Virus record (IMG/VR): IMGVR_UViG_3300009157_000016
Location: 1 to 64,000 of that record
Origin: a virus
Direction: 5' to 3' (one strand)
Length of the DNA stretch: 64,000 nucleotides
The notes beneath the pieces were generated by a model. That model ran no database searches and was not told where the DNA came from. It saw only the letters and a program-made list of their open reading frames with translations. Positions within the stretch are counted from its first letter, which is position 1; every line of letters starts with the position of its first letter. This document shows positions 9,480 to 61,875 of the stretch, piece after piece. The translations under genes were made by a program, and so were the position numbers.

Positions 9480-9595
9480 AGAAGCACCCCTGCGATGATT
9501 GTTACGAACCCGGTGAGGACGGAACCAATGACTACGCCAAGCACGAAGTAGAACTTGGCGACTTCTATGTCCGTCCCCGTGACTAGCAGTTTCAT
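9476..9595 (-). CDS. small membrane peptide (39 aa)
   Basis: MKLLVTGTDIEVAKFYFVLGVVIGSVLTGFVTIIAGVLL; coupled at both ends. Confidence 0.55.
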   Translation of the reverse strand: MKLLVTGTDIEVAKFYFVLGVVIGSVLTGFVTIIAGVLL

Positions 9596-9930
9596 TATCT
9601 GTCCTCCAATCTCACGCGCACCTTGTCAGACGAAGCTTCCAGCCGCAGCTCGTCCAGCGCTGCTTGCAGCGTCTCATGGCGGGCGACGAAGTTGTCCACG
9701 GCTGCCTGCTCTGCCTTCGCCTTCTCATGGCTGATCATCACGGCTCGAACTTCCTCCAGCGCGCCCCGCGCAGTCGTGCGCCGGCCCTGATTGTCCACGT
9801 AGCGCGGCAAGGATAGGCTCTCAGGCAGGCGCGCGAACAGAGGCTCGAACAGACCGTTGATGTCTTGCTGGAGCTTCGCGAACGCCTTCCGGCGGATGAT
9901 CCCGTCTACTGTCTCTGTCTCAGTGGTCAC
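9595..9930 (-). CDS. hypothetical protein with C-terminal RVRLE tag
   Basis: 111 aa; ends KVRVRLEDR. Confidence 0.7.
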   Translation of the reverse strand: MTTETETVDGIIRRKAFAKLQQDINGLFEPLFARLPESLSLPRYVDNQGRRTTARGALEEVRAVMISHEKAKAEQAAVDNFVARHETLQAALDELRLEASSDKVRVRLEDR

Positions 9931-10507
9931 GTCTTTTACCTTTCAGGTCGTAGTGATCGCGAAACCAGTCAATGCCCTTCTCTTTGTAGACCCCGCGCCA
10001 CAGATGGCCTTTGCGGAACAGGACATAGAGATCCCAGTCCTTGTCGTCCAGGATCTCTTTGAGGAAGGGATACAGCTCATCGTAGTTCTCAAGGACGTCC
10101 ATCATGGTGTCACCACCGCACCACGGCGCTTTGGTCGTGCTGGAGCCTCGGTAGTTGAGAACCCATTCTTTCTCTTCACGGGTAGCGCGGCGCAGGATCT
10201 TCGCATCCCGCCCGGTCTCTTCATTGAGTTTGCGCTCGCCCGTGGGCACGATGCGGCCTTCACACTGGAGAGTGTTGACGGCACCTGAGATTGGATCTTG
10301 ATAGAGGGTCTCACCACGGCGCTTTGCGCGGCGGATCATCTCAATGGTGAGATCCCATAGCGTGCATGGTTCAATGTCAAGAAAGACGCTCCACACATCC
10401 TCCTTGAAGGCCCGCTTTAGATTTCGGGCTGCTTCACGAGATGTCTCAGGCCCGACGCTGCGGGCGTAGCTGTCATATGTCTCCCGGTCCCTGTTCGCCA
10501 CCGTCAA
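9920..10507 (-). CDS. hypothetical protein, possible HTH
   Basis: 195 aa; TSREAA... and GRIVPTGERK winged-helix-like segment. Confidence 0.6.
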   Translation of the reverse strand: MTVANRDRETYDSYARSVGPETSREAARNLKRAFKEDVWSVFLDIEPCTLWDLTIEMIRRAKRRGETLYQDPISGAVNTLQCEGRIVPTGERKLNEETGRDAKILRRATREEKEWVLNYRGSSTTKAPWCGGDTMMDVLENYDELYPFLKEILDDKDWDLYVLFRKGHLWRGVYKEKGIDWFRDHYDLKGKRRDH

Positions 10508-10727
10508 GCTCCTTCATGGGCAGCACCCCCTGATCGGATGGGGGATTGGGGTACACCCTGACGCAGCCCTTGCGGCGGATGAGGCCGAAGGATCTGCCGT
10601 CAGAGAACGTCACACCCATAACATACCCGAGAGGCTTTGATCTCATGTAGTCAAGATAGTCGCCGCCAGCGCGAACTTGCCCCCACAAGTCAGGATGGTC
10701 GGCGTCAAGGATGAGGCGAAACTTGGC
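10473..10727 (-). CDS. hypothetical protein
   Basis: ORF fills the gap between coupled genes; start uncertain. Confidence 0.5.
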   Translation of the reverse strand, partial: AKFRLILDADHPDLWGQVRAGGDYLDYMRSKPLGYVMGVTFSDGRSFGLIRRKGCVRVYPNPPSDQGVLPMKELDGGEQGPGDI

Positions 10728-11301
10728 CAAAGGCTGGTACTCCTGCAATGGTCTTGTCGAATTCTGTGCGGTGGCACATGAAGCCGCGAAGCAGGATGAG
10801 GGAAGCAACTGGCGGATCTGCGTCGATAGCGGCTACGTCGGTGAACTGCACGAACTCAGACGGGTGCCAGTTCGAGACGTGCGCCTCAGACAGCACTCCG
10901 CCGGCGTCGTTCTGGATGTAGCCGTAGGGCACCACGATCATGATGTATTCGCAGCGGTAGAGAAAGAAGTGGATCAGGTCGACCGCTTCTGACTTGTACA
11001 TGTGCTCCAATACGTCACCAAATATCACCATCGACCACCGCTCGTTGATCCCTTCGTGCGTGCCCATGTGGTCGTAGATATCGTGCAGTCGCACTTCGTC
11101 ATAGATCTCCGTCAGCTTGAATCGCTTGACGTAGGCTTCCTCCTTCTCATAGGCCACGCGCCGGCACTGAGCGCCCCTGATGGACTTGAGCATGGTCCCA
11201 TACTTGCCCATGCCCGCGCCTACGTCCAGCGCCGCCGTGGGCTGCGCTGCGGTGATGATTTGGGCAGCGGCCAAGTCAAACAGGCTCCACGATGTCGGCA
11301 T
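10705..11301 (-). CDS. class I SAM-dependent methyltransferase
   Basis: ALDVGAGMGKYG motif I; FGDVLEH motif. Confidence 0.85.
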   Translation of the reverse strand: MPTSWSLFDLAAAQIITAAQPTAALDVGAGMGKYGTMLKSIRGAQCRRVAYEKEEAYVKRFKLTEIYDEVRLHDIYDHMGTHEGINERWSMVIFGDVLEHMYKSEAVDLIHFFLYRCEYIMIVVPYGYIQNDAGGVLSEAHVSNWHPSEFVQFTDVAAIDADPPVASLILLRGFMCHRTEFDKTIAGVPAFGQVSPHP

Positions 11302-11302
11302 G

Positions 11303-11620
11303 TCACAATTCCTTTCCGATAACGAACTCTTGGAAGGCGAGGCTGGGGCGCACACAGTGGGCCACTAGGTAGTGCATGTACCCATCGGGCCATTCCCAGC
11401 CTTCGTAGAAGAACGTCGAGCTGCCGTTGTGAGCGCCGCACAGGCGGCACGTTGAGAAGCCTCTGTAGGTTCGCATTGAGCCGCCGCGCTTCTTGCGAAG
11501 TATATCCTCTAAGCCAGCAAGGGCTGAGATGAGCTCTTGCTGCCCATCCCACGGTTTGCCCATGATGGGCTCCGGCAACTGCGGGTGATGGCGCTCCATC
11601 CAAAAGCCTTCGCGAGGCAT
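11303..11620 (-). CDS. phage hypothetical protein
   Basis: YRGFSTCRLCG...WEWPDGYMHY; coupled ORF. Confidence 0.7.
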   Translation of the reverse strand: MPREGFWMERHHPQLPEPIMGKPWDGQQELISALAGLEDILRKKRGGSMRTYRGFSTCRLCGAHNGSSTFFYEGWEWPDGYMHYLVAHCVRPSLAFQEFVIGKEL

Positions 11621-11874
11621 CAGTCCCACTCCTCGTGTTTGGCGGGTTTCGTGTCCCACTTGGCCAACTGAGAGCGCTCGTACTGCTTGCGGCGCTGCTC
11701 ATCCGGGTGGCCGGGCTTCCAGTCCTCAATGCCGTAGTTGTCAACTTCGAAGACACGGGACTTCGCATAGCGGTTGAGACTCATCGGCCGGTACCGATAA
11801 GCCCCGGTTGCCATGTTGAACTGGACTTCGAACTCGCTCTGCACTGTGGTAATGTCAATCCAGTCGTCGTCCAT
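11620..11874 (-). CDS. hypothetical protein
   Basis: MDDDWID start with GGGGG RBS. Confidence 0.6.
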   Translation of the reverse strand: MDDDWIDITTVQSEFEVQFNMATGAYRYRPMSLNRYAKSRVFEVDNYGIEDWKPGHPDEQRRKQYERSQLAKWDTKPAKHEEWD

Positions 11875-12130
11875 CGTCACCCCCTGCTTCGTAGTCAACG
11901 AAGAAGATCTGACCGGTTGCCGTATCCGCTCCGTACTTTCGGTCCTCCGGTAAGCCATGCTCCAACGCTGCTTGACGGACCCAATGGTGCGGCGGCGCTG
12001 GCCGCTCTACAATGGTCTGACCCTTTGCAAGGTCCATGCTGATCGTAGGGCCGCGTTTCGCCGCTTCAATCCGTTTCGTTTGTTCAGGTGTGAGACGCTT
12101 TCCCGTATCCGTCAACTTTGGCGTAGCCAT
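11855..12130 (-). CDS. hypothetical protein
   Basis: GAGG RBS; coupled ORF. Confidence 0.6.
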   Translation of the reverse strand: MATPKLTDTGKRLTPEQTKRIEAAKRGPTISMDLAKGQTIVERPAPPHHWVRQAALEHGLPEDRKYGADTATGQIFFVDYEAGGDDGRRLD

Positions 12131-12134
12131 GATC

Positions 12135-12584
12135 CTATCCTCGCACACTTCGCCTGTACATCAGGCCGTCCACCATGACCATCTGCTTCGCCTCAACCCA
12201 TTCGCGCAGTTTGACGGCCTTGCCTATGGCGTGGTCTTCAAGCTTAGGATGAGATATACCGGCGAGCTGGCAAAGGTGTTCTATCTGCAACACCATGTCA
12301 GCCAATTCTTGGAGCCGATCAAAGGTGTCGCCCAGCGGCTTCATGTTGGAGGGATAGACGCCGGCCTTCTTGGCTTCGTTGTAGATGGCGTCCATGACGT
12401 GCTTGAGAATGTCGGCAGGCGGCAGACCAAAGATCAGCGCCAGCTCCACCGCCTCCTCAAGCATACGGCCGGCTGAGCGCGCATGAAGATGCGACTTGCG
12501 AATGTTGTCGTACTGCTTGGGGTCCACGAATCGTACGGTTTGCTGGATGTGTAAGCCAAGGTCATTCATGGTGGGCTTCGGCAT
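12135..12584 (-). CDS. MazG-like nucleotide pyrophosphohydrolase
   Basis: RMLEEAVEL ... QELADM acidic motifs (ExxE/ExxD). Confidence 0.65.
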   Translation of the reverse strand: MPKPTMNDLGLHIQQTVRFVDPKQYDNIRKSHLHARSAGRMLEEAVELALIFGLPPADILKHVMDAIYNEAKKAGVYPSNMKPLGDTFDRLQELADMVLQIEHLCQLAGISHPKLEDHAIGKAVKLREWVEAKQMVMVDGLMYRRSVRG

Positions 12585-12851: not shown

Positions 12852-13511
12852 CTATTCTGTTGCGTAGGTCACCAGAAGCGGCCGACGCCGTGGTGCCTCA
12901 CTGAAATCGTCCCGGTCCATTCCATAGGCCCACATGAGGTCTACAGGCGAACGATAGTAGCTCAATTCGTTGAGATTGAGCGTGAGAATGCGTGCAGCAC
13001 GCGAATTATGGGCGATTTCCTTGTTTCTGCCCTCGATATGGCGGTCAACGGTGGTCAGAAACACGTTCTTTTTGTGCCCTCTCGTGCCCAATCTCTTGCG
13101 GAATCGCACTAGCTGATCACGAATCGCGGTGGAATTCGCCACGGATTCGGTGACTCCTTTGAGCGATTCAGTCATCCCAATTTTCATAGCCTCAATCAAA
13201 TCCGCCTTGTCCAGCTCCTTTCCGCACCCTGCGAGGGCCGAATCGAAGGCTTCGACCAGCACTTTCATGTACAGCTCTTCGGCTGTCTTGAAGGATTCCT
13301 CATCCTTGTTGCCGGTGGTGTCGTAGATGTGACGGGAATCCGGGTCCATGAGGATCCGGTATGCCCGGTTGATTTCAAGATAGGCGTCTTCGTCGCCCGT
13401 GACCTTGTTGTCAGGGTGCAGGGCCTTCGCCTTCTTGCGGAACGCCTTTTTGATGACTGTCTCAGTCGCGTCTTCGTCGACTCCTAGCAGCTCGTAAAAT
13501 TCCTTTGCCAT
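12852..13511 (-). CDS. DnaJ (J-domain) protein
   Basis: FYELLGV...IKKAFRKKAKALHPD...EINRAYRILMDP; HPD motif intact. Confidence 0.9.
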   Translation of the reverse strand: MAKEFYELLGVDEDATETVIKKAFRKKAKALHPDNKVTGDEDAYLEINRAYRILMDPDSRHIYDTTGNKDEESFKTAEELYMKVLVEAFDSALAGCGKELDKADLIEAMKIGMTESLKGVTESVANSTAIRDQLVRFRKRLGTRGHKKNVFLTTVDRHIEGRNKEIAHNSRAARILTLNLNELSYYRSPVDLMWAYGMDRDDFSEAPRRRPLLVTYATE

Positions 13512-13864: not shown

Positions 13865-14488
13865 CTATACGGTTCTGGCGGCGTTCTCAAGCCTACGAAA
13901 TATCGTCACCATACGAACCCGGTGATTGGTAGATTTGACCATCCCGATGTAGGCTTCAACTGCCCACTCATCCTTGCGATACATGGGCAGCACTTGATCC
14001 AGCCAGACAAGGTGAGCGCCGGCCTTCAACTTGCGCGCCAAGGTGCGGAGAACGGTGTTCCGGTTGATCATGGATGCCTGATAGTGCTCCGCGTCCTCAA
14101 CGCTGTAGGGCGGATCAGCCAGAACAAGGTCTATCCCGTCAAAAGGCACCAAATCCAGCGATTCGGCGTTATCCACGTAGTCAGGACACCTATCGGGGTT
14201 GATATCCACCGTAATTCCGGGGAATTCGTCAACATTCACCGCCCCGGCGAACAGATGCAGGCACTTTCGCTTGTCAGGAAACATGCATCTGACCCGCCGT
14301 AGGTAGGTTGGCGGGTATCCACCGTAAAAGCCGGATTTCACGCTGTAGTCGTTCCCCATGACCCAAGTTCCCACGATTCGGCCGTCTCCAGCCAAGAATA
14401 GGCTCTCAGGGAAGCCAGATCGGGCCGAATAGCACGAAATCCGGTCAGAAGGGGTCAAATCTAGCCGAATTCGCCGAATTCCGCTCAT
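13865..14488 (-). CDS. putative DNA N6-adenine methyltransferase
   Basis: LHLFAG (motif I) and DLVLADPPY (motif IV). Confidence 0.7.
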   Translation of the reverse strand: MSGIRRIRLDLTPSDRISCYSARSGFPESLFLAGDGRIVGTWVMGNDYSVKSGFYGGYPPTYLRRVRCMFPDKRKCLHLFAGAVNVDEFPGITVDINPDRCPDYVDNAESLDLVPFDGIDLVLADPPYSVEDAEHYQASMINRNTVLRTLARKLKAGAHLVWLDQVLPMYRKDEWAVEAYIGMVKSTNHRVRMVTIFRRLENAARTV

Positions 14489-16677: not shown

Positions 16678-18531
16678 ATGAGCAAAAAGACGCTACAGCG
16701 CGAAGCGCCAGTTAAGGGGGAGCCGGAGCGCAAGTCGTATCCAAGCGTCATCAAATCAATCGACCAAGCGACACGGAGGATTGACTTCATCATTTCGACG
16801 GAGTCAGTTGACCGCTACGGCGATGTCATTCGTGTCAAGGGGTGGAGCCTCAAACCCTACAAGGCGAACCCGGTTGTCCTCTTCGGTCACCAGAACCGCG
16901 AACCGCCTGTCGCGCAGGCCGTGCGCGTGTGGAAGGAAGATGGAGCGCTGCGGGCAACCGCTCAGTTCATGTCTGAGGATCTGAGCCCGTTCGCGCACAG
17001 CATTTTCCGCATGTACGAGGAGCGCTTCCTGCGCGCCACGTCCGTCGGCTTCATGCCCCGCGAATGGGACTTCATTCAGGACGCGGACGGGAACATCACC
17101 GGCTACGACTTCGTGAAGTCGGAGCTTCTGGAATTCAGCGCCGTGCCTGTGCCGGCCAACCCGGAGGCCCTTGTCAACGCACGGGCGAAGGGGATCAACA
17201 CCGCTCCGTTCAAGAAGTGGGCGGAGCACATGCTCGACGAGTGGCCCGAGCGTGAGTCGCAACTTCGTGGCCTCTACGGCATTGACCGGAAGGGGCTCGA
17301 GTCTATCCGCCGTAAGGCGGCAGGAACCGGCGCAGTGTACCGCTTGTCCGCCGAGGAGACGGAAGAACTCCGTCGCCGGAACTTCGGGGACATCATCATC
17401 AACATTGGTGGGGCCGACGCCGTTGAGAAGGACGCGCAGCGCTCCTTCGCCAACTCCGGAATGAGCGAGGACCAGGATCACAAGGAGAGCACGATGAAAG
17501 TGAAGCAGGGAATCTTCGGCGTTTCGGCCGCAGAGGTCGAAGAGTTGAAGGAGGCTTGCAAAGAAGCGGAGCTGTACGCAATCCCGCTGCCCGACAAGGA
17601 CGGCAAGAAGCAGTTCCTGCTTGTCCCGGAGATCGACTCGGGGATGATGGAAGGCACGAAGGGCATCCAGATGTCCGTCGAGGAGCACAACGGCAAGCGG
17701 TCATTCGTGATCGACAAGGCCCCGAAGCTCGCCGTCATCGCCCCCGAGGTCCTCGGCAAGGACGCCAACCTGTTCGAGTTCAAGATGGACGACAAGGCGT
17801 CGCACGTCTTGCTCACCATCAAGGGAGCGAACTTCGCCGCCACCTACAAGCTTCACGGCATGGTGGACGCGGACGCCGAACTCATGGCCGAGCTGGTCGG
17901 AACCAAGGACCAGAAGCAGCCCAACGAGAAGGGCGACGACGCCGACAAGGGCACCAAGAAGCCCGACACCAAGGACACCAAGAAGGAGTCCAAGGACGGT
18001 GAGGAGTCCAAGGACGAGTCGAAGGACGAGTCCAAGGGTGGCGACGACGCCGAGGGCGAGAAGAAGGCCACGAAGGACGGCGACGACGAGCCGCTGGAAA
18101 TCGGCGGCAAGAAGATCCCGGCCGAGGCCGCCAAGGAAATCCGTCGGCTCATTGCAGCCGCCGTGAAGAAGGAGGAAGACGAGGCCGCGAAGGGTCCCAT
18201 CGACCTCATGAAGGAAATCGAGAAGGCCGAGGCGCTGATGTCCTCCCTCGAGGAGGCTCTTGCCAAGGCGAAGAAATCCGGGCAGTTTGTCTCCAAGCTT
18301 GCTGGGCGGAAGCTCAAGACGCTTGGGGCCTACCTGCGCGAGCTGGCCGACGACCTCGACCCGGAGGGGAAGGTCAAGGTCAATACCAACGGGCACGATG
18401 AGTCCAAGTCCGACGACAAGGACGAAATCGACCTGAAAGATCTCGGTTCGTTCTTGGCCAAGGAGGTTCAGCCCCAACTTGCCGCCCTGATCGCGACCGA
18501 AGTGAAGAAGGCACGGGGGGCGCTCGACTAG
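16678..18531 (+). CDS. HK97-type prohead protease with long C-terminal scaffold-like extension
   Basis: STESVDRYGD, NPVVLFGH, ATSVGF, LLEFSAVPVPANPEAL motifs; charged C-terminal half. Confidence 0.9.
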   Translation: MSKKTLQREAPVKGEPERKSYPSVIKSIDQATRRIDFIISTESVDRYGDVIRVKGWSLKPYKANPVVLFGHQNREPPVAQAVRVWKEDGALRATAQFMSEDLSPFAHSIFRMYEERFLRATSVGFMPREWDFIQDADGNITGYDFVKSELLEFSAVPVPANPEALVNARAKGINTAPFKKWAEHMLDEWPERESQLRGLYGIDRKGLESIRRKAAGTGAVYRLSAEETEELRRRNFGDIIINIGGADAVEKDAQRSFANSGMSEDQDHKESTMKVKQGIFGVSAAEVEELKEACKEAELYAIPLPDKDGKKQFLLVPEIDSGMMEGTKGIQMSVEEHNGKRSFVIDKAPKLAVIAPEVLGKDANLFEFKMDDKASHVLLTIKGANFAATYKLHGMVDADAELMAELVGTKDQKQPNEKGDDADKGTKKPDTKDTKKESKDGEESKDESKDESKGGDDAEGEKKATKDGDDEPLEIGGKKIPAEAAKEIRRLIAAAVKKEEDEAAKGPIDLMKEIEKAEALMSSLEEALAKAKKSGQFVSKLAGRKLKTLGAYLRELADDLDPEGKVKVNTNGHDESKSDDKDEIDLKDLGSFLAKEVQPQLAALIATEVKKARGALD

Positions 18532-18588
18532 TTCGAGCCTTCCTTCAACAGCGGCCTGAGCGCCGCAAGTTTGCAAGGCTGTAAAGGA

Positions 18589-19842: not shown

Positions 19843-19910
19843 GCCTAGGAGGCTCCCGTAGCAGGACCATGAGGGAAGGCTAAGACCCTTCTCAACTGAA
19901 AGGAAATGAA

Positions 19911-20387: not shown

Positions 20388-20416
20388 ACGGGAACCAGTT
20401 CCGGTAGCGCGTAGGG

Positions 20417-20444
20417 AAAGGGCGGCCTTGTGCCGCCCTTTCTT
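20417..20444 (+). terminator. Rho-independent terminator
   Basis: AAAGGGCGGC-CTTGT-GCCGCCCTTTCTT. Confidence 0.7.
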
Positions 20445-20474
20445 ATCTCAGGCAACAGGTAAGAGGAACGCAAC

Positions 20475-51518: not shown

Positions 51519-51689
51519 TCAGGCGCTCTCGGCGCGGGTTTCTTTCTGCCCATGCTGGATAAGGCTCAGGAGTCCCTGAACGTATGCCAGCTTGGCGCGG
51601 TAGTATGCGATGAACACGAAGTTCAAGAAGCAATACAGCAGCGCCAGAACAAGGATCAGGACTGCTACGCCCAGTACGTCCTCAGTCAT
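51519..51689 (-). CDS. small membrane protein (56 aa)
   Basis: MTEDVLGVAVLILVLALLYCFLNFVFIAYYRAK...; GGTGAGG RBS. Confidence 0.6.
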   Translation of the reverse strand: MTEDVLGVAVLILVLALLYCFLNFVFIAYYRAKLAYVQGLLSLIQHGQKETRAESA

Positions 51690-52182
51690 CGTACCTCACC
51701 CTTCGTTTGGAACGGCCTTCAATGATCCGCTCCATGTTGCGCTTGGAACGATACTCGTCAGCCCGGCCGCCTTTGGTGGCGTCCGTCTGATAGTAGTTCG
51801 CTACGTACAGCCCTGCCAGATCCTTGAGCATGTAGGACCGCATTGAGAAGGACTCCTTCAACGTCTGGCACCTGTCCGCCCATTCCTTGGCGTCAAGGTA
51901 GCTCTTGGTGGCCTCAATGTGGTCGTCATGTATCTCAATGGCGTTCTTGATAGCCGCCTCACTGGCCTTGCCGTCCGACCGTTCCAGTTCCCTCCTGCAC
52001 TCAAAGTATAGGCGCGCGTCGATTTGGGACAGTTCCTCTTTGGCTGTGTCCCGGTCAGCGTTTGCCGCTGCCAATAGATCGCCGGCTTCATAGAACAATT
52101 CTGGTTGCCTGACCAATTCCATGTCTAGGTCAAGGCGGTCAATTTGCAGCGCACGGCGCAGTTCGCTAGGTTTTGCGGGCAT
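51682..52182 (-). CDS. UvsY-like recombination mediator
   Basis: LQIDRLDLDMELVRQP, KASEAAIKN, helical; next to SSB and RecA. Confidence 0.65.
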   Translation of the reverse strand: MPAKPSELRRALQIDRLDLDMELVRQPELFYEAGDLLAAANADRDTAKEELSQIDARLYFECRRELERSDGKASEAAIKNAIEIHDDHIEATKSYLDAKEWADRCQTLKESFSMRSYMLKDLAGLYVANYYQTDATKGGRADEYRSKRNMERIIEGRSKRRVRYDD

Positions 52183-52214: not shown

Positions 52215-53192
52215 CTAGGCCCGGTGGAGTTCCAGAACCAAGCCAATGGAAACGTAGAGGGGAGCGTACTTGGCGGAATTGTCATAGGGCGTTGAGAAGC
52301 ATTCGATGATCCTCAGCAGGCTCGCAGCGCGGCGGTGATCAGTCGTCTTGGCCGCCACCTTCGCCATGTAGTGGCACGTAACGATGCGAATGCTTTCAGC
52401 GTCCTGATTGGCTTCCTCCATGTCCTTGCAGATGCGCATGGCGTCCTTCCATGTGCCCTTGGGCTTCATGAGGAACTGGCAGAAGTCATTGATTTCCTTC
52501 GTCTCACCGGCCAGCCTTAGCGCCTCACGCGCGTCGGTCACCGTTTCGCAGTACTCAACCTTCTCAAGGTAGGTCAAAGCCTGCCGTGGTGAGCCGCCGC
52601 TGTTCTCAGCAATCAGCTCTAGTATCTCATCCTCCACCTTGAGGTCCGCCTTGTCCATGACCTCGGCAAGGATGAGCAGAATTTCATCCTCACTGAGCGG
52701 CTTGAGATGGTAGTCAATGCACCGCGTCTTGATGGTGGCAGGAACCTTGCCGGGCAGCGTGGTGCAGAAGAACCAGTACACGTGCTTGGGCGGTTCCTCC
52801 GTGGCCTTGAGAATGCTGTCCCATGCGTTGCTGGACAGCTTGTGGCACTCATCCACGATGATTCCTTTGACCGGACTGTCGCCAATTGCCCGGTAGTTGG
52901 CCTTCTGGACAATGCTGCGCATGGCGTCCACACCGGTATGCGTGGCAGCGTCCACGTCGAGGATGTTCGCCAGCGTGATAGTGGCATCGTCGCTCTTGGC
53001 CCCAAGCAGGGCAAACTCGTTCGCCACAATGCGGGCAAGCGTCGTCTTGCCAAGGCCGGAGCCGCCCGTGAACAGGAAGGTGTGGGCACGCCCCTCCTTC
53101 ACGACCTTGCGCAAGGACTTCACGACGGCGTCGTGTCCAATGACGTCCTTGAATACGTTCGGCCGATAGGCGGTGTGTAGTGACGTGCTCAT
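52215..53192 (-). CDS. clamp loader, DnaX (gamma/tau)-like
   Basis: YRPNVFKDVIGH, GGSGLGKTT, DAATHTGVD, VDECHKL, LKATEEPP, TIKTRC. Confidence 0.92.
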   Translation of the reverse strand: MSTSLHTAYRPNVFKDVIGHDAVVKSLRKVVKEGRAHTFLFTGGSGLGKTTLARIVANEFALLGAKSDDATITLANILDVDAATHTGVDAMRSIVQKANYRAIGDSPVKGIIVDECHKLSSNAWDSILKATEEPPKHVYWFFCTTLPGKVPATIKTRCIDYHLKPLSEDEILLILAEVMDKADLKVEDEILELIAENSGGSPRQALTYLEKVEYCETVTDAREALRLAGETKEINDFCQFLMKPKGTWKDAMRICKDMEEANQDAESIRIVTCHYMAKVAAKTTDHRRAASLLRIIECFSTPYDNSAKYAPLYVSIGLVLELHRA

Positions 53193-53512
53193 CTTCGTTT
53201 ATCCTTTCGCTTCCCCTGTTGGCTCATGTGAAATATACCGTTCGCACAGTCAGGGCGCTCCCCATTGCACGGCCTCCAGTAGATGTGTCCGCACAACGTA
53301 CACTCAGTTGGCTTGTCACCGGGGAACGCTGGATACATCGTTCGGTGGTCACCGGCTTTGTACTCGGTCATGACCTCTATGGGTCCGTCGTCCAGCCTCA
53401 CCCGCTGACGGTGCGGCGGCGGGGCGGGCTCAGGCAGTATCAGGTCATCTTCGTCAAGCCTGACCCGTTTGCGGGGCACGACGGGCTCATCTAAACGCAC
53501 TCGCTTTTTCAT
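53189..53512 (-). CDS. protein with three RVRLD repeats and a C-terminal Cys motif
   Basis: KKRVRLDE, RKRVRLDE, RQRVRLDD; CTLCGH...C...C. Confidence 0.7.
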   Translation of the reverse strand: MKKRVRLDEPVVPRKRVRLDEDDLILPEPAPPPHRQRVRLDDGPIEVMTEYKAGDHRTMYPAFPGDKPTECTLCGHIYWRPCNGERPDCANGIFHMSQQGKRKDKRR

Positions 53513-53548: not shown

Positions 53549-56266
53549 TTAGATACCCTGAGAATCGAATGACTTGTAGTTCTCGCTCCAGTACTTGCCC
53601 ACGGGCTCAAGCTTGTTCCACTTCTTGCCAATGGACACTTCCACGCTCATAGGCACGTTGATGAAATCATACGGGAGCAGAAGCAGTTCGCGTGCCAAGT
53701 AGCTGATCTCATCTGCCAGTATGCTGTCCTTGTCAGGCATCATGAACGTCAGGTCGTCATGGATTTGCATGATGGGATGACGGTAGCGGATCTTATGCTT
53801 GAGAGAGCTGCGGCTGATCCTCACCATGCCGTCGTTCACAATGTCAGCCGCCAAGGACTGGATGGGGCTGTTGTACAGTTCGTGTCGGCTCATGGGATAG
53901 TAGCGGCGGCGGCCGGTGAACGTTTCCACGTAACCCACGTCGTAGTAGGTCCGCATGGTCTCGTCCTGCCACTCCTTGAGGCCGGAGAACGTTTCCCAAA
54001 ACTCCTCAAAGATGTCCTGCGCCACGTTGTCAGGCATGGCCTCGCCAAGGAAGGGTAGGAAGTAGCTGGCAACCGACGGCTCAGCCGCACCAAAGATAAC
54101 AGGGAACACCATCTTGTTCTTGACCAGTGAGCGCGCACCCTTCAATGCGTCCTCGTCATTCTTCCCCTGCTTCTCCTTAAAGTAGTCGAACAGCCACGGC
54201 CAGCGCTTGCCAATTTTGAGCGCCCATTCCTTGTGAACGTCGTATTCCTTCCACGTAGCACCGACCATGTTCTTGTCATTGCAGAACATGCAGGCGGTAC
54301 ACCACTCCAACTGCCCAAAGTCCACGCTAACGAAGACGTGGCCTTCCAGCGCTTCAACTTGCTCCCTGATCCAAGCGTCCTTGTGCTTGGGCCAGTTCTG
54401 CATGTTGGGGTCGTCCGAACTGAGTCGGGCGGTGGTGGTGAAGGTCGTGTTGAAGGAAGTGTGGAGCTTGCCGTCGGGAAAGATGAGCGTGCCGTCAGGC
54501 AGGATCATCTGGTCGACGTACGTGCTCTTCATCTTCACTTTGTTGCGCAGCTTGATAATCAGCGGCGCAAGCGGATGGTCTATCTTCTCAAGGACGGCTT
54601 TGTCAACCTTCTCAGTGACTTTATCTGAGTCCTTTTTGTCCTTGACGAAGACCTCAGGCCGCTTTAGGTAGTCACGGAATATGGTAAGGACCTGCGGCTG
54701 CGACTCAGGATTGAATTCCCCTTTATGCTCACTGACATACTTCTTGACCACTTTGAGGCCAAGGATGTCATTTACGATACCCTTGACTTCGTCTTCCAGC
54801 TTGCCTTGCAGGCGCTTGGCGGTCTTCTGGTTGATGGGGACGCCGTAGTGCTGCATGAGAGCCACCGCGCCCTGACGCGGCATGGCCATCTCATAGACAT
54901 GCTCCTGCCTGATGTCCCTGATAAGCTTGTCCTGATGGAACCAGAGTTGCAGCGTGGCGCGCGTGTCAGCGCCATTGTAGATGAGGACCTGATCGTAGGG
55001 GCTTTTGCGCAGGTCCTTCTTGTCCAGCTTGAACTGGCTCTTGATGTCTATGCCGAAGTGCTGGCGTGTGAGGAAGCCTAGCTTTTGGTATTGCGAAGCG
55101 TGATCGTCCTGACCCTTCTCGTTTGGCCCTTTGCGGCCGTCAAGGATGTAGGCTTGGACCATTGTGTCTTCCCACGAGTTGTGGTGAACAATGTCTTCGC
55201 CAAAGTAGAAGATGTACCACTCCATCTCAAATGGAGAGTTGTGCGCAATCTTGGGGATGTCACGGCGGCGTATCAACGCCTCAAGCCGGTCAAGGATCTT
55301 CTGCCGCTGCGCTTTGGACCAGTTGGCCTTGGGATGGTCGACTCCGAACGAAAACGTTCTTAGTTTTAGGTGCCTGTCATAGTAGGAAAAGGCGGCCGTC
55401 AGAATGATAGCGCCGGTGCGGTAGGGTCTGAGAGGCCACGTCTCAAGGTCGGTGGCGTAGCAGGCAACTCCTCTCTCAATGTCGTCGAACTCCCGCATCA
55501 GGGAGTCAAAGTCATCCTCGGGGCGCTCACCGCTGTAGGTGTTGACGTCCTTCTTGACAGTCTGCTGAGTCCATACTTCCGGCCACGGCGGATCGTCGTC
55601 CATGAACCGCCATATCTGCTCAAAGTCCAGCTTCCACGCGCCACCTACTCGGCCGTTCAGCGGGCGTCTGTCATCCTTGGCCGACCGCAGGACGTAGGCA
55701 GGGTGATTGGTGGGGAAGAACCAGCACTCATGCTTTCCAATGGTGACCGCAAAGAAGCGGCCCCGCATACCTTGCATGTCTTTCGTGCCAAGCATCCACT
55801 GCAAGGCTGGGATGCCAAGGCCCACGATCAGCTTGGGGGCAGCTTCCTCAATGGCGGCGGTGACGTAGCCGCGACAGCACTCCTGCTCAATCCACTCCGG
55901 CGGCCGTATCTTACCCTCAGCGTTTTTGGGGAAGTGCCTGACTGTGTTCCCGTAACCGCAGTTGTCATAGTATTCGTTGGGGATCATGGACTTGAGAAGC
56001 TTGCCTGACTTCCCAATGAACGGTACGCCCTCCTGTTCCTCCTGCGGACCCGGTGCCTCACCTAGGAAGAAAATGTCGCATCTGCGTGGTACGTCTTCAC
56101 GGACCTCATTGCCGGCACGTGAGAGGGGGCAAGCGCGACAGCCTAGGCGTTGCAGCGTTTCCGAGCTTTGCTTCGTTTGCTGGCCTACCGAAGACCGGCG
56201 GGGGCCGGTTTTGTCGGCGCCCTTTTTCGCGTTCGCCTTATCTGCTTTCTGGTAGAAGAAGCCCAT
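53549..56266 (-). CDS. polA: family A DNA polymerase with N-terminal family-4 uracil-DNA glycosylase domain and 3'-5' exonuclease
   Basis: CRACPL, GEAPG, HPAYVLR (UDG); DLET, HNSPFE, YNGAD (exo); TARLSSDDPNMQN, DFGQLE, QIHDD (pol). Confidence 0.93.
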   Translation of the reverse strand: MGFFYQKADKANAKKGADKTGPRRSSVGQQTKQSSETLQRLGCRACPLSRAGNEVREDVPRRCDIFFLGEAPGPQEEQEGVPFIGKSGKLLKSMIPNEYYDNCGYGNTVRHFPKNAEGKIRPPEWIEQECCRGYVTAAIEEAAPKLIVGLGIPALQWMLGTKDMQGMRGRFFAVTIGKHECWFFPTNHPAYVLRSAKDDRRPLNGRVGGAWKLDFEQIWRFMDDDPPWPEVWTQQTVKKDVNTYSGERPEDDFDSLMREFDDIERGVACYATDLETWPLRPYRTGAIILTAAFSYYDRHLKLRTFSFGVDHPKANWSKAQRQKILDRLEALIRRRDIPKIAHNSPFEMEWYIFYFGEDIVHHNSWEDTMVQAYILDGRKGPNEKGQDDHASQYQKLGFLTRQHFGIDIKSQFKLDKKDLRKSPYDQVLIYNGADTRATLQLWFHQDKLIRDIRQEHVYEMAMPRQGAVALMQHYGVPINQKTAKRLQGKLEDEVKGIVNDILGLKVVKKYVSEHKGEFNPESQPQVLTIFRDYLKRPEVFVKDKKDSDKVTEKVDKAVLEKIDHPLAPLIIKLRNKVKMKSTYVDQMILPDGTLIFPDGKLHTSFNTTFTTTARLSSDDPNMQNWPKHKDAWIREQVEALEGHVFVSVDFGQLEWCTACMFCNDKNMVGATWKEYDVHKEWALKIGKRWPWLFDYFKEKQGKNDEDALKGARSLVKNKMVFPVIFGAAEPSVASYFLPFLGEAMPDNVAQDIFEEFWETFSGLKEWQDETMRTYYDVGYVETFTGRRRYYPMSRHELYNSPIQSLAADIVNDGMVRISRSSLKHKIRYRHPIMQIHDDLTFMMPDKDSILADEISYLARELLLLPYDFINVPMSVEVSIGKKWNKLEPVGKYWSENYKSFDSQGI

Positions 56267-56422: not shown

Positions 56423-57478
56423 TCAGTCTCCGAAGTTGGACAAGATTTGGAAGAGGTCCGCCCCCTTCCGGTAGACCGTGAAGCCTTCCAGCACGGCCAT
56501 CTCTGAGCATACGTCAATGCTGCGCGCCATCAAAGCCGCGTTGACCTTGATCTCGACGTCTGGATGATCCCCTTGAAGGTTGACCAGATCGCGCACCTCG
56601 CCCATGTCGGTGTTCGTGTATAGGCGCATCCGGCCTTCCTTGATGCTGATCTCAGTGGGCTGCGATTTGGGCTCAGCCACGACACGCGCCCGGCTCAGAG
56701 CGTGCTCAAGTCCTTTGGGGACCTTCATCCACGGGATCTCATCCCGCGTGGTCTTTTCGACCCACATGGCGTGGTCCACCGGGTCTTCTGGTTTGATGAC
56801 GCGGCCGTAGACCTTGTAGTCCTTCTCAAGCTCGGCCAACACCCATTCGTCAGAAGCGTGCAGCCGGCCGTTCATGGACTTGTCGCTCTTGCAAATGCGC
56901 AGGACCGACTCGCAGAAGGAGTTGGGCATGACGAAGCTGTGCGGGTCGTTGTAGTTGGCTCCGTCGATCAGGTAGTGCGTGAGGCTGTCTGAGTCGCAGG
57001 AGTAGAAGCTGATCCCGTCACCGGTATCCAACGTGATGCCCATGAGCGCCTGTTGGCTGCTGTCCTTGCTGGTCGTGGTGAGGCAAATTTCCATCGCCTC
57101 AATCAGGCTGTCATCCAGGTCCAGCACCACGTCCCACGACTCGTCAGACGGTTCTTTGAACAGGAACTCTGACTCTGGCAAGTAGGGCAGGCGCATCTTG
57201 GACCGGCCGGCAATGAACACGACTTCGTGTTGCTGGTCGTCGAACTCAATCTCCACTTCCTCGGTGCGGCAGTTGCGCAGCAAGCCGAGCATGGTGTCGC
57301 CGTGGCAGGCGAAGGGCGCTACGCCGGACGTGCATTTGGCCACGATGCCTAGGTGGTCGTCCGTCGCGTACAGGGTGTCCCCTGTGAACACGAAGTTCTG
57401 GTAGACGGGAACCAAGTCCTGATCGGCCAAGGCGGGCTTGATCAGTTCCAACATCGTGACCAGTGCTTTGCGTCTCAT
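56423..57478 (-). CDS. DNA sliding clamp (beta-clamp, DnaN-like)
   Basis: ~351 aa; LYATDDH, QALMGI, SCDSDSL repeats of the beta-clamp ATD motif; same module as DnaX. Confidence 0.8.
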   Translation of the reverse strand: MRRKALVTMLELIKPALADQDLVPVYQNFVFTGDTLYATDDHLGIVAKCTSGVAPFACHGDTMLGLLRNCRTEEVEIEFDDQQHEVVFIAGRSKMRLPYLPESEFLFKEPSDESWDVVLDLDDSLIEAMEICLTTTSKDSSQQALMGITLDTGDGISFYSCDSDSLTHYLIDGANYNDPHSFVMPNSFCESVLRICKSDKSMNGRLHASDEWVLAELEKDYKVYGRVIKPEDPVDHAMWVEKTTRDEIPWMKVPKGLEHALSRARVVAEPKSQPTEISIKEGRMRLYTNTDMGEVRDLVNLQGDHPDVEIKVNAALMARSIDVCSEMAVLEGFTVYRKGADLFQILSNFGD

Positions 57479-57918
57479 AGCCTCACCCTTCTTGCTAGTT
57501 TCCAACGGCGCTTGGCCGATTGCTGCATCTTTGCGATAGATTCGGATGTGTGCCGCGTACCATACCTTATGTGACCTATACCTTTCTGCGTGACGCCGGA
57601 GTGACCCTTCTGAGATTTATGTTTGGCGTGACAAGAAGGATAGAGTTGATTCTGACTGTTGGTTCCATCAAGTAAGTGCGCGGCGTTGCAGCACGGATGA
57701 AATTCGCAGTCATGGAGAACCATTCTTGGCCATGCTGGCACGTAACCGTTCTCTAAGAAGAACGCCACGCGATGGGCAGTGTACTGTATGCTGTGACGAA
57801 CTGAGAATACTCCATGCCCACTGGTTTGCGTTCCGCCTAACCAAGGCCAGCATTCGTCGGGGCCGCGTCGGTCAACTTTGGACCAGAAGCGCGCTATGTC
57901 TTTAGCGCTGAGGATCAT
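57475..57918 (-). CDS. HNH endonuclease
   Basis: RFWSKVD..GPDECWPWLG, AHRVAF, VLHDC..PCCNAAHL..GT..QN; ends RRVRL. Confidence 0.9.
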   Translation of the reverse strand: MILSAKDIARFWSKVDRRGPDECWPWLGGTQTSGHGVFSVRHSIQYTAHRVAFFLENGYVPAWPRMVLHDCEFHPCCNAAHLLDGTNSQNQLYPSCHAKHKSQKGHSGVTQKGIGHIRYGTRHTSESIAKMQQSAKRRWKLARRVRL

Positions 57919-58799
57919 TCTGGCTTCCTGAAAATCAAAAGGTGCTCGTGTCTCGGCACGAGCTTCTTACCGCGCCATGCGTTGCCTGCTCTCTTGGCGG
58001 CGCTGGCGAAGTTTTTGGACAGGATAATGTCCTGCCAAAACAGGAAGCCTGCTTCACGGAAGTTCTCAACGGTATGGCTGCGGAAGTCGACCAGCTCCCC
58101 GGTCTTGTCACGGAAGTTGCCGACCACAATGCAGACGAACGCTCCCGGCTTCATGAGCGGCCAATGCGCGTAGGCGCACAGCATCATGGAAGCGTTGAAT
58201 TCTGCGTAAGAGATGGAGTTTGAGACATCGTCCCGCTGTTCGCTATACACCTCGAGATCAAAATAAGGGGGACAGGTGACAGCACAGTCAAAATCAGACT
58301 CGTCGATATCAAGATAGCGAGCGTCATCAAGGTGGTAATGCACGCGGTCAAGATTAAGGTCGGCGATAACCTTTTCGTTCTCATCTAACTGCTCCTGCCT
58401 GACGTCTACCCCGTGGTAGATGTGGCCCATGAGGGAAGCGGCTATGGCACGGGGCGGCCCGCCGCAGAAGGCGTCAAGGACCTTCGCCCTGCGCTCCTTG
58501 CCAGCGTAGCGTAGGTAAATCCATTCAGCCAAGGGAAGGGGGAACACGCTGTACGTGCCGGTGTAGACGCTGTCATGGTCAGCCCGGAACTTCTCAGCGC
58601 GTTCCCCGGTGTGGCCGTCCTCGTCAGTGACGCGACGCCAATCCCGCACGCGGCGCTTGATAGCCTCATCCACGTGCCAGATAGTCATGCTGGTCGAGAA
58701 GTCGAGCGTGGGGCGGACATACCCTTGCTTGAAGTCGGTCAGGGTCGGCCGAGTGATTTCCCGCACGCGGCCGTCAGGGAGAGTCTTCTTAAATAACAT
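57915..58799 (-). CDS. DNA amino-methyltransferase (N4-C/N6-A)
   Basis: VLDAFCGG (motif I), TCPPYFDLEVYS (motif IV), HEHLLIFRK. Confidence 0.88.
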   Translation of the reverse strand: MLFKKTLPDGRVREITRPTLTDFKQGYVRPTLDFSTSMTIWHVDEAIKRRVRDWRRVTDEDGHTGERAEKFRADHDSVYTGTYSVFPLPLAEWIYLRYAGKERRAKVLDAFCGGPPRAIAASLMGHIYHGVDVRQEQLDENEKVIADLNLDRVHYHLDDARYLDIDESDFDCAVTCPPYFDLEVYSEQRDDVSNSISYAEFNASMMLCAYAHWPLMKPGAFVCIVVGNFRDKTGELVDFRSHTVENFREAGFLFWQDIILSKNFASAAKRAGNAWRGKKLVPRHEHLLIFRKPE

Positions 58800-60256: not shown

Positions 60257-60296
60257 TTCAACTCCTGTTGGTTGTGGCTGCATGATGACTATACGC

Positions 60297-60324
60297 AAAC
60301 GGCCAGCCTTCGCAGGCTGGCCGT
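60297..60324 (-). terminator. hairpin terminator
   Basis: ACGGCCAGCCT-GCGA-AGGCTGGCCGT-TT. Confidence 0.65.
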
Positions 60325-60343
60325 CAGTTTCCTGGAAGGTCGA

Positions 60344-61285
60344 TCAGTCGTCGCGGCGGCGGCGGCTGCCCTTCCGGTCGTCATCGTCATCCTTGCGGCT
60401 GGACCGCTTGGAGTCCTTGGCATCGTCGTCGTCACGGCTGCGGCGCTTGGACGAGGAAGCCTCCTTGTCGTCGTCGCGGCTGCGGCGCTTGCCCTTGTCG
60501 TCATCGTCGTCACGGGAGCGGCGCTTGCTGCTGCCCTTGTCGTCGTCATCACGGGACCGCTTCCGGTCGCCGTCGTCGGAGTCACGCTCCTTGTTCGAAG
60601 CGGTGGTCATTTTCCGCTTCTGCGCCGAGGACAGGTCATCCTTGTGCGTGACCTTGATCAGACCGTCGTAGCGCTCGACAAGGTGCCCATCCTTGGTCAG
60701 CTTCTTGAGCACGTTGTTCTGCGGGCCGCCGGTCTTGTCCTTGATGGTCTTCATGGACGCGCCGCCCTCGAAGAGCTTCACGGCGTCGGAGACCTTGGTG
60801 CCGACGACGAGCCCGTAGCGGTCGCGCTTCGCACCCTCGTAGTCACGGGGCGACTTCTTTTTGGAGCCCTTGTCGTCGTCCTTGTCACGGCCGCGGATGG
60901 ATTTGCGGTCGTCCTTGTCGTCGTCCTTGGAGGAACGACGGCCGCGCCGGTCATCCTTGTCCTCGTCCTTGTCCTTCGACTTGGCCGACTTGCGGTCATC
61001 GTCGTCGTCCTTGGACGAACGCTTGCCGCCCTTGCGGTCGTCGTCCTTGCCGCCCTTCTCCTCCTCGAAGTCCTCGATATCCTGGTCGGTCTTCAAGGCG
61101 TCCAGCGCGTTGTTCGCCCAGTCGGTCGCCGGGTCTGAGACCGCGTTGAACTCGTCGTCGGGAAGCTTGTTGACTTCCTTGGCGAGCGCGGCAAGGTAGT
61201 CCTGCCGGGTCTTGTAGTCGTCCTCGTCCTTCTTGAAGCCGGTCGCCTTGATCAGCTCCTTCTCGATTGCATGGAGTTTGGCCAT
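60344..61285 (-). CDS. winged-helix-like protein with long Lys/Arg/Asp mixed-charge tracts
   Basis: Core GTKVSDAVKLFEGGASMKTIKDKTGGPQNNVLKKLTKDGHLV flanked by KDDDR/RSRDDD repeats. Confidence 0.75.
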   Translation of the reverse strand: MAKLHAIEKELIKATGFKKDEDDYKTRQDYLAALAKEVNKLPDDEFNAVSDPATDWANNALDALKTDQDIEDFEEEKGGKDDDRKGGKRSSKDDDDDRKSAKSKDKDEDKDDRRGRRSSKDDDKDDRKSIRGRDKDDDKGSKKKSPRDYEGAKRDRYGLVVGTKVSDAVKLFEGGASMKTIKDKTGGPQNNVLKKLTKDGHLVERYDGLIKVTHKDDLSSAQKRKMTTASNKERDSDDGDRKRSRDDDDKGSSKRRSRDDDDDKGKRRSRDDDKEASSSKRRSRDDDDAKDSKRSSRKDDDDDRKGSRRRRDD

Positions 61286-61302
61286 TTCCTACTGCCTTCC
61301 TT

Positions 61303-61875
61303 TCAAGCTGTTAACCACTCACGAAACGCGGCCACCAAGTCAGCGTCGCTATCCAGACCAAGAATGCGCTTGATCCTTGTGTTGAAGCTGGGGCGTGGAA
61401 GCCCACGGTGTCTCCTACTTGGTTTCCTAAGCTCTTGCAAGTGGCGGTCACTGGCGAACACGCTGAGAAGCAAAAGCACTTCCGGAGGCGCGTTCGCCAA
61501 GACAATAGACACTGACCCTTCGTCGGCAAGATTGCAAGCTAATTCGCTCACATCTTCTACGCCGTCAACGAAGGCGGACTTGCGTTCAATGTTCTTGTTT
61601 GCTAGGTCAATCAGCTCGTTCAGGAGAGCCGTCTTGTAGAGCGCCATGAAATGGGGCGCGTGCATGACGCGCGGATACTTGACTGTGCAGCGCTCGAATA
61701 CAATGTAGGCGTCTTGCAGGAGGTCGTCCATGCCACATAGGACTGGATCATAGCGCCATAGGTTTTCACGTAAGAACTTGATCGTGTAGGCTTTTATCAC
61801 CCCGTCCCATTCAGGATACCATTCAAGACGGACACGACTGGACAACTTTTCAAGCCGCACACGGCGCTTCGGCAT
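61303..61875 (-). CDS. sigma70 region-2-like factor
   Basis: MDDLLQDAYIVF...KY...F...Y...L.N..ID...K; GGAGAGG RBS. Confidence 0.65.
   Translation of the reverse strand: MPKRRVRLEKLSSRVRLEWYPEWDGVIKAYTIKFLRENLWRYDPVLCGMDDLLQDAYIVFERCTVKYPRVMHAPHFMALYKTALLNELIDLANKNIERKSAFVDGVEDVSELACNLADEGSVSIVLANAPPEVLLLLSVFASDRHLQELRKPSRRHRGLPRPSFNTRIKRILGLDSDADLVAAFREWLTA

Follow-up and report, generated by a model that had tools for sequence, protein, structure and literature searches.

Why should a recombinase, a resolvase, an HNH endonuclease and a DNA methyltransferase, all encoded by one phage, end or begin with nearly the same few residues? The question is raised by the window analysed here, a stretch of 64,000 nucleotides that comprises bases 1-64000 of the 108,377-bp IMG/VR virus record IMGVR_UViG_3300009157_000016 (G000 in the comparisons; rated complete by CheckV; G+C 58%). 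The recurring element, hereafter called the tag, is a basic residue followed by R-V-R-L and then by an acidic residue or the protein end, and it is placed on a disordered terminal tail. In G000 it takes the form R-[VI]-[RK]-L followed by D/E or by a free C-terminus, with a broader core of [KR]-R-x-[RK]-[LY]. Eleven proteins of the window carry it, as do 17 in the whole 108-kb genome, which is about one-tenth of the proteins. From its sequence context and by analogy, we tentatively read the tag as a portable, BRC-like docking motif that would be recognized by the RecA-UvsY-SSB (single-stranded DNA-binding protein) recombination machinery, most likely by the RecA core, and we rate this reading at slightly less than an even chance.

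The excess of the tag was evaluated on our own gene calls (163 proteins, 31,403 amino acids), with shuffles within each protein, which keep its composition, as controls. RVRL was observed 17 times, against a shuffle mean of 0.96 and a maximum of 4 in 300 shuffles. Within 25 residues of a terminus it occurred 14 times compared with 0.33 after shuffling, so the motif is both over-represented and terminal, as a preliminary description made from the sequence alone had supposed. The exact RVRL lay within 16 residues of a terminus in 12 proteins, where 0.14 were expected (0 of 1000 shuffles). The longer pattern [KR]R[VI][RK][LY] followed by D/E or the protein end was found 12 times against 0.09 in the shuffled set, and R[VI][RK]L forms the C-terminal end of 6 of the 163 proteins. 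Wherever models of carriers exist, the tag residues have a pLDDT (predicted local distance difference test) below 50, and these predictions support a location on disordered terminal tails.

To judge by its coding sequence, selection acts on the tag peptide and not on the DNA, because the same peptide is spelled with different codons both in this genome and among orthologues. The number of different codons at the four tag positions is 5, 8, 8 and 8, and the orthologous tags of G001, the nearest relative, are written with yet other ones. In the same genes, RVRL occurs 17 times in the coding frame and 4 times in the five other frames summed. The preliminary description had argued for peptide selection from the differing codons, and these counts agree with it. 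It had also pointed out that two C-terminal copies double as Shine-Dalgarno sites. Indeed, the ATG codons that start the clamp gene and 51519-51689 have AGGGTGAGG 5-6 nt upstream, and two C-terminal tags overlap the Shine-Dalgarno site of the next gene.

All occurrences that the preliminary description had listed were found again in the sequence at their places. The carriers of the window are as follows, with the position of the tag core first.

9607-9618, minus strand: RVRL (KVRVRLEDR*), C-terminus of the 111-residue protein 9595-9930, which has no family match
14462-14473, minus strand: weak tag RIRL (MSGIRRIRLD), N-terminus of the DNA methyltransferase 13865-14488
21658-21669, plus strand: RVRL (IRRVRLGD), internal, at residue 55 of the head-module protein 21496-22278
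22264-22275, plus strand: variant RTRL* (KTRTRL*), C-terminus of the same head-module protein 21496-22278
43857-43868, minus strand: RVRL (MKHRVRLTEE), N-terminus of 43560-43877, whose C-terminal half is weakly GcrA-like
47830-47841, minus strand: RVRL* (RDRVRL*), C-terminus of the PDDEXK/RusA-like resolvase 47827-48345
49701-49712, minus strand: RVKL (MAKRRVKLED), N-terminus of the RecA/UvsX-like recombinase 48672-49724
49980-49991, minus strand: variant RTRY (KKRTRYDDP), within the R/D-rich C-terminal tail of the gp32-like SSB 49932-51503
51691-51702, minus strand: variant RVRY (KRRVRYDD*), C-terminus of the UvsY-like mediator 51682-52182; its codons are the Shine-Dalgarno site of the next gene
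53492-53503, 53456-53467 and 53393-53404, minus strand: three tags (MKKRVRLDEP, RKRVRLDED, RQRVRLDDG), N-terminal half of the 107-residue Cys-rich protein 53189-53512
57478-57489, minus strand: RVRL* (ARRVRL*), C-terminus of the HNH endonuclease 57475-57918; its codons are the Shine-Dalgarno site of the clamp gene
61852-61863 and 61825-61836, minus strand: two tags (MPKRRVRLE, SSRVRLE), N-terminus of the 190-residue helical protein 61303-61875

The assignments behind these names differ in firmness. The start of the methyltransferase at 14488 is favoured because the phrog_3816 match spans residues 23-199 of the long form; GGAG lies upstream of this start. The UvsY label of the preliminary description is borne out by structure prediction: the AlphaFold2 model of 51682-52182 (pLDDT 78) gave T4 UvsY as all ten best PDB fold matches, at E values of 0.04-0.16 and probabilities of 0.97-1.00. 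At residues ~55-70 of this protein, the position that matches the KARL motif of T4 UvsY (LKARLDY) reads IDARLYF, and a KARL-like RRVRYDD is found at the C-terminus instead. For 43560-43877 the N-terminal tag stands, but the name "GcrA-like" rests on a Pfam match below the cut-off (PF07750, 9.5e-5). The label "sigma-like" for 61303-61875 could not be verified, since PDB profile, NCBIfam and Pfam searches returned no match and the model is poor (pLDDT 55). The gene of the Cys-rich protein 53189-53512 lies between the polymerase and clamp-loader genes.

Beyond the window there are six further carriers, namely TerS, TerL and four small proteins whose C-terminus is RVRL or RVKL. TerS has its tag at the N-terminus, and TerL has two within an N-terminal extension of ~100 residues. 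Thus the carriers comprise DNA-transaction, packaging and probably transcription proteins, in line with the earlier view that the tag marks DNA-acting proteins. No tag is present on the polymerase (53549-56266), the clamp, the clamp loader (52215-53192), the primase, the helicases, SbcCD or the other structural proteins. The N-terminus of the polymerase (window 56255-56266, minus strand) reads MGFF[FYLH] in G000 to G004 and in Vibrio phage SSP002; it is a candidate N-terminal clamp-binding peptide, the C-terminus being the more usual place for one.

The preliminary description had suggested looking for the tag in related phages, and the tag is kept on orthologues in three related uncultured phages (G001, G002 and G003), at times at the other terminus or on another carrier gene. 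The nearest is G001, a complete 102.6-kb IMG/VR phage whose TerL and RecA are 63% and 55% identical to those of G000. Its tag, K[KR]R[KH]R[VIT][RK]L, is present on at least 15 proteins. The tagged orthologues are TerS, TerL (two copies), RecA, the resolvase, the counterpart of 61303-61875 and the head-module protein, of which the orthologue of 21496-22278 ends in KKRKRVKA*. G001 also tags its portal, an N6_N4-methylase-like protein (weak match) and an Nlig-Ia protein (7.8e-13). The partial genome G002 (64 kb) has tags on RecA, the resolvase and a methyltransferase-like protein. In G003 (71.8 kb; RecA 45% identical) the sequence RERL occurs at the termini of three proteins, compared with 0.1 expected (0 of 1000 shuffles), and RIRL at those of three more.

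Because the terminus and the carrier gene switch between genomes, the tag behaves as a movable module. The Cys-rich protein has three N-terminal tags in G000 and a single C-terminal one in G001, and two metagenomic homologues (43-48% identity) have two N-terminal tags in which RVRL is invariant while the linkers have diverged. A second case was seen just upstream of the clamp gene, where the stretch between the methyltransferase-like and clamp genes was compared (window 57475-58799, minus strand; G001 36207-37363; G002 11346-12302). There the tag is encoded by the HNH gene in G000, by a 95-residue open reading frame in G001 and by the C-terminus of the methyltransferase-like gene in G002. A tag-coding stretch that belongs to three different open reading frames in three genomes suggests that the HNH insertion captured a pre-existing tail. 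The methyltransferase-like protein itself (57915-58799, minus strand) is the most conserved protein of the group, with 59-64% identity even to G004.

The preliminary description had asked whether homologues in other phages lack the tag: distant homologues are untagged, and those of close relatives are tagged. Conserved as it is in related phages, the tag escapes the refuting outcome that the preliminary description had named. In a collection of 5.8 billion proteins, R[VIT]RL* forms the C-terminus of each of the five closest homologues of the resolvase (49-100% identity; several metagenomes) but not of more distant ones. No proteome-wide tag was found in ~75 other RecA-bearing loci, among them those of G004 and G005 (both complete), of Citromicrobium phage RXM and of the cultured SSP002. 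Neither RXM (104 kb; TerL 35% identical) nor SSP002 has the tag; in SSP002, RecA, SSB, the protein at the UvsY position, the resolvase and TerS bear generic Arg-rich tails at the corresponding termini. In 32 RecA-bearing loci the N-terminal 4-mer of RecA recurred elsewhere in the locus 4 times, with 2.2 expected; hence, proteome-wide tagging is not general.

Other short terminal motifs were encountered in these comparisons. At 87-93 kb, G004 has about nine small paralogous genes (72-94 residues) with a C-terminal L[LF]KA / IKAW motif that is unrelated to RVRL. Two 156-kb IMG/VR phages (L056 and L059; 32% G+C) have, near the RecA gene, three paralogues of ~245 residues with an N-terminal IKVGD motif, two of which begin MIKVGD.

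What could read the tag? The RecA N-terminus offers the best lead. K-R-x-[KR] occurs within the first 35 residues of 94 of the 120 best RecA relatives and is followed by a hydrophobic residue in 65. Elsewhere in the same proteins its rate is 0.07 per 35 residues, so the N-terminal rate is ~12 times the background. Position 3 of this motif is E, V, A or T, and such tolerance makes specific recognition more likely than charge alone. The RecA N-terminus is the one family-wide copy of the tag and probably the ancestral one. Position 27 of the RecA family profile aligns with E. coli RecA residue 36-37, which places the tag within the N-terminal stretch by which protomers of RecA and UvsX are joined (residues 1-35 in E. 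coli RecA).

Moreover, the tag of each genome has the flavour of that genome's RecA N-terminus: R[VI][RK]L in G000, G001 and G002, RERL in G003, whose RecA begins MVARERL, and KRVRA in G004. In G003, RERL is found at the start of RecA and at the end or start of two other proteins; in G004, KRVRA is found on RecA and in the SSB tail. This co-variation favours the recombination machinery over a clamp or a compartment. In T4, UvsX contacts UvsY and the gp32 C-terminal domain (PMC3016280, PMC11551737), and the tags on the UvsY-like protein and the SSB tail of G000 match this network of UvsX-UvsY and UvsX-gp32 contacts. Given the copy at the RecA N-terminus, the co-varying flavour and the tags on the UvsY-like protein and SSB tail, the RecA N-terminal peptide and the tags would share one binding site.

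In the proposed mechanism, the tag would be a copy of the phage's own RecA N-terminal peptide. Through it, proteins of recombination, repair, modification and packaging, together with transcription-factor-like ones, would be held by a single common protein partner in the phage replication and recombination centre. The partner may lie within the RecA-UvsY-SSB presynaptic machinery, with the RecA ATPase core as top candidate. By imitating an adjacent protomer, tagged clients might attach to RecA protomers or to the ends of filaments, and the three-tag Cys-rich protein could act as a multivalent adaptor or regulator.

Clamp ligands, SSB tails and BRC repeats already exemplify the principle of a shared terminal docking peptide. 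As the preliminary description had presumed, no published account of the tag turned up when the literature was searched for the peptide, for short linear motifs of phages and for phage signals resembling a nuclear localization signal (NLS). The BRC repeats of BRCA2 bind Rad51 by mimicking the peptide that joins its protomers. The likeness would lie in a short peptide that comes from, or imitates, a self-association segment of the recombinase, is placed singly or in tandem on other proteins, here in three tandem copies on one small protein, and would attach them to the recombinase core. The sequences are unrelated, however (basic R-x-R-L versus FxxA), and the phage has ~17 clients per genome, including terminase, methyltransferases and HNH, for which RecA docking is putative. 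Hubs built on SSB (the T4 gp32 C-terminal domain, the E. coli SSB C-terminal tail, the T7 gp2.5 tail) are also similar, in that an abundant protein binding single-stranded DNA gathers partners through a disordered tail (PMC11551737, PMC3016280) and the partner classes include UvsX and UvsY. Their polarity is reversed here, since it is the partners that bear a common peptide, and the SSB tail is 170-225 residues long, mixed or acidic in charge, with tag-like motifs.

That the tag binds a protein, and which protein, we infer. The preliminary description had proposed a phage-wide linear motif recruiting proteins to a common hub; of this, a peptide motif under selection on DNA-acting proteins stands, and the hub is putative. 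A complex prediction of the RecA core (residues 33-350, 18-row alignment) with the three-tag peptide (residues 1-50) gave no answer (score 0.00) and counts neither way. Several points weigh against docking on RecA. No test performed here named a receptor. The benefit of RecA docking, as opposed to binding DNA, is not obvious for methyltransferases, HNH, the putative GcrA-like and sigma-like proteins, TerS, TerL or the G001 portal. The G001 tags are strongly basic (KKRKRVRL), and the tails of its SSB and its 60344-61285-like protein are poly-acidic, so a simple electrostatic partner would fit. Since only four genomes bear tags and they are related, the co-variation represents few independent events. 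The E. coli RecA strand IMRL is the one that pairs with the neighbouring protomer. The tag lies in the stretch before E. coli RecA residue 36, and our spacing alignment puts a conserved YF, ~15-20 residues past the tag, on the IMRL strand instead of the tag; the tag would therefore be an accessory contact rather than the main one. Finally, the polymerase, helicases, primase and SbcCD have no tag.

The main rival, which we regard as rather unlikely though serious, holds that the partner is a polyanion. The tag would bind the phage DNA, by a weak sliding contact as in a molecular "sled" or in the manner of KARL, or else the acidic or mixed-charge tails of two proteins, and clients would thereby enter an SSB-DNA condensate that constitutes the virus factory. 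The two proteins are the following.

49932-51503, minus strand: gp32-like SSB, flanked by R/D mixed-charge tails of ~65 residues at the N-terminus and ~225 at the C-terminus; a candidate for the hub or scaffold
60344-61285, minus strand: conserved 313-residue protein of unknown function whose low-complexity segments are rich in K/R/D; a candidate for a co-scaffold

The tails of both span 170-290 residues and consist of R/D in G000, poly-D/E in G001 and RG/E in G002, and tag-related motifs also occur in the SSB tails of G002 and G004. The basicity of the tag follows the acidity of the tails over these three genomes: G001 tags carry ~+4.2 facing tails of -0.27 per residue, while G000 and G002 tags carry ~+3.2 to +3.6 with acidic flanks and near-neutral tails. 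All clients of known function act on DNA, including the G001 portal; some have 2-3 tag copies; and the generic Arg-rich tails of SSP002 occupy the same termini. Basic NLS-like peptides bind and slide on DNA (PMC4740752, PMC4797294), and the ssDNA-binding motif LKARLDY of T4 UvsY resembles the tag (PMC3016280). Molecular sleds such as adenovirus pVIc (GVQSLKRRRCF) and KARL, which reads K/R-x-R-L-D, likewise hold proteins on viral DNA through a basic cluster followed by a hydrophobic residue. Nucleophosmin is a further parallel: its long acidic scaffold tracts are bound by multivalent Arg-rich motifs on clients, and a condensate results (PMC4786410).

Other observations speak against a polyanion. 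Sliding and binding by basic peptides are indifferent to residue order and spacing (PMC4797294), whereas the V/I and L of the tag are near-invariant. The tag does have the cluster of at least three basic residues typical of a sled, but its strict order, its conserved V and L and the Glu found inside the commonest RecA variant and the G003 flavour suggest more than charge. In almost every G000 copy the tag is succeeded by an acidic residue or by the end of the chain, and G000 tags with their flanks have a net charge of only ~+2, which is weak for DNA at physiological salt. KARL lies within a folded helix and not on a tail. Nucleophosmin belongs to the eukaryotic nucleolus, the tag is more specific than R-x(n)-R, and condensation is hypothetical here. 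Mixed-charge tails are also found in a relative without proteome-wide tagging (G004).

The tails themselves were further compared. SSB orthologues have equally long tails of another make-up, with poly-D/E and KSK blocks in G001 (44327-45574) and RG/E in G002 (20581-21972), while the G004 tail is acidic with four KPxR(S/T)R...DPE modules. The charge-rich tail is thus kept as a feature and not as a sequence. The protein 60344-61285 combines a folded N-terminal part and a possible winged-helix region with long low-complexity segments of K/R/D, and its G001 orthologue has ~160 D/E residues. Its codon score per residue is the highest in the genome but is inflated by repeats, and an Atlas search with it gave no usable lead.

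A different folded receptor is an unlikely answer as well. Candidates are the sliding clamp, the OB-fold core of SSB, where the tag would mimic the basic N-terminal cooperativity peptide of gp32-type proteins, and a protein of the host, for example RNA polymerase or a chaperone. The clamp deserves most attention, as clamps in T4, archaea and eukaryotes are established to gather DNA enzymes and a late sigma factor via terminal peptides. Clamp peptides (the PIP box, QL[SD]LF, the T4 gp43, gp33 and gp55 tails on gp45) resemble the tag in being short terminal peptides on unrelated DNA-transaction proteins and on a sigma-type factor that converge on one hub. In addition, an alternating R-hydrophobic-R-hydrophobic followed by a carboxylate would suit strand addition beside a carboxylate-binding site. 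For the other candidates, the SSB N-terminus has a conserved basic YKRTSRE-type peptide, and the phage encodes a J-domain protein. However, the tag is basic and not hydrophobic-aromatic and is unlike QL[SD]LF or PIP motifs; RecA, SSB, TerS and TerL have it. Because the polymerase and clamp loader are untagged and the polymerase keeps its own hydrophobic MGFF[FY], a more typical clamp ligand, family-wide, the clamp, which is itself untagged and which the preliminary description had named first as a possible hub, appears an unlikely reader. Clamp, SSB core and UvsY also exist in relatives without proteome-wide tags.

In our estimate it is decidedly improbable that the tag serves to import proteins into, or retain them in, a replication compartment built by the phage, and so plays in a bacterial virus the part of a nuclear or nucleolar localization signal. 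We also consider it quite unlikely that the tag is a true address label, such that a phage-built replication body with the R/D-rich SSB and 60344-61285 as its scaffold would concentrate or admit the proteins bearing it. The tag fits the classical monopartite pattern, K-[KR]-x-[KR] then L/V and an acidic residue, and nearly equals the c-Myc NLS PAAKRVKLD; like these signals it is terminal, disordered and placed on DNA-acting proteins. Flanks such as RVRLDEP recall the SV40 T antigen sequence ...KRKVEDP. The clients belong to the classes that nucleus-forming phages import, and the mixed-charge tails look like nuclear-body scaffolds. Yet this is the virus of a peptidoglycan-walled bacterium, no shell, importin-like importer or other ARM/HEAT-like protein was found among the proteins scanned, and the polymerase, helicases and primase are untagged, so the likeness may be physico-chemical convergence. 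Known phage nuclei are those of jumbo phages, which use folded surface patches and not linear signals (PMC11087766). If the address label were true, a 108-kb non-jumbo phage would use a linear NLS-like signal of the kind sought but not found in nucleus-forming jumbo phages.

A regulatory mark, by which a degron or the site of a modifying enzyme would control all clients jointly, is very improbable. Its terminal, exposed position would suit such a mark, and the ClpX signal at the MuA end is also a basic-then-aliphatic C-terminus. But the same motif occurs N-terminally, C-terminally and in internal tandem, while the known N- and C-terminal ClpX signals differ from one another. The clients cover early, middle and late functions, no typical modification residue is conserved, and no protease or transferase is linked to the tag. 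The degradation and packaging signals that the preliminary description had offered as alternatives are without support and fit poorly with tags on TerS, TerL and the G001 portal. Chance, composition or a DNA/RNA element read as peptide, which the Arg-rich proteome and the two Shine-Dalgarno overlaps might suggest, has a negligible probability and is refuted by the shuffle (17 versus 0.96), off-frame (17 versus 4) and codon controls and by the peptide kept in orthologues of 45-63% identity.

Known signals were also compared with the tag, and several were rejected. A DNA repeat is excluded by codon diversity. The T4-type prohead-protease site L-x-E does not fit, and C-terminal copies would be uncleavable. 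A Tat (twin-arginine translocation) signal lacks its hydrophobic region after the tag, the peroxisomal targeting signal PTS1 is rejected by pattern, and a DnaK-binding core would need a contiguous hydrophobic run. A capsid-targeting or cargo-loading peptide is inconsistent with carriers such as TerS, TerL, RecA, SSB and the resolvase, none of which is cargo of the head. As a classical NLS the pattern K-[KR]-x-[KR] is present (KKRVRL, KRRVKL), but the host is bacterial, the genes are led by Shine-Dalgarno sites and no ARM/HEAT protein was among those scanned. The hydrophobic/aromatic clamp consensus (QL[SD]LF, QxxLxxFF) is absent, as is the tag on the polymerase. Six proteins end in V/I-[RK]-L and so match the class II C-terminal ligand pattern of PDZ domains (hydrophobic-x-hydrophobic-COOH), and in internal copies D/E follows; no PDZ domain was found among ~30 proteins scanned against Pfam, a scan that most small proteins and the host lay outside.

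If one peptide does recruit a tenth of a phage proteome to one partner, it would give a handle on the spatial organization of recombination-dependent replication, modification, late transcription and packaging. A provisional role, namely acting at the phage DNA, would follow for several small proteins whose function is unknown, and a six-residue tag could direct foreign proteins to the phage replication centre. With RecA as the reader, the system would be an independently arisen viral counterpart of the BRCA2-Rad51 principle. It may also illustrate a motif spreading through a proteome, from a single ancestral RecA copy in hundreds of relatives to 15-17 carriers in one clade.

As for the phage itself, its gene content identifies G000 as a tailed phage infecting a peptidoglycan-walled bacterium, because it encodes a prohead protease, an HK97-type major head protein, a head-tail adaptor, a tape-measure-sized gene of 1726 amino acids, portal, TerS and TerL, and an endolysin with Amidase_2 and peptidoglycan-binding domains (Pfam scan), and its genes are led by Shine-Dalgarno sites. 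A near-identity search with 20 kb of the genome gave zero matches among cultured phages, and an IMG/VR scan with the single TerL protein gave nothing. No tRNA genes were found. A RecA profile search of genome contigs returned just distant contigs of metagenome-assembled genomes from mixed taxa, and no host call came from that. The module for replication and recombination comprises, in this order, clamp, polymerase, clamp loader, UvsY-like protein, gp32-like SSB, RecA, resolvase and SbcCD, and it is syntenic with that of Vibrio phage SSP002 (Mardecavirus; RecA 41% identical).

Genes for morphogenesis occupy two separate blocks. The first, at window 16678-25319 (plus strand) / 16.7-40 kb, holds the protease, major head protein, adaptor and tail genes; the second, at genome 89743-93935 (plus strand), holds TerS, TerL and portal. 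The gap between the blocks is ~70 kb on the linear record, or ~32 kb if the genome is circularly permuted, and G001 is split likewise. Past the window, a plus-strand island of six genes (genome 69548-75320), which G001, G002 and G004 lack, includes a 1237-residue protein with a low codon score and no Pfam match. The J-domain (DnaJ-like) protein is encoded at window 12852-13511 (minus strand). Its J-domain was recognized by eye from the N-terminus, and PHROG matches, to families of unknown function, span the first 70 residues only. A homologue is present in G001, and the annotation of Citromicrobium phage RXM also has a DnaJ-class protein.

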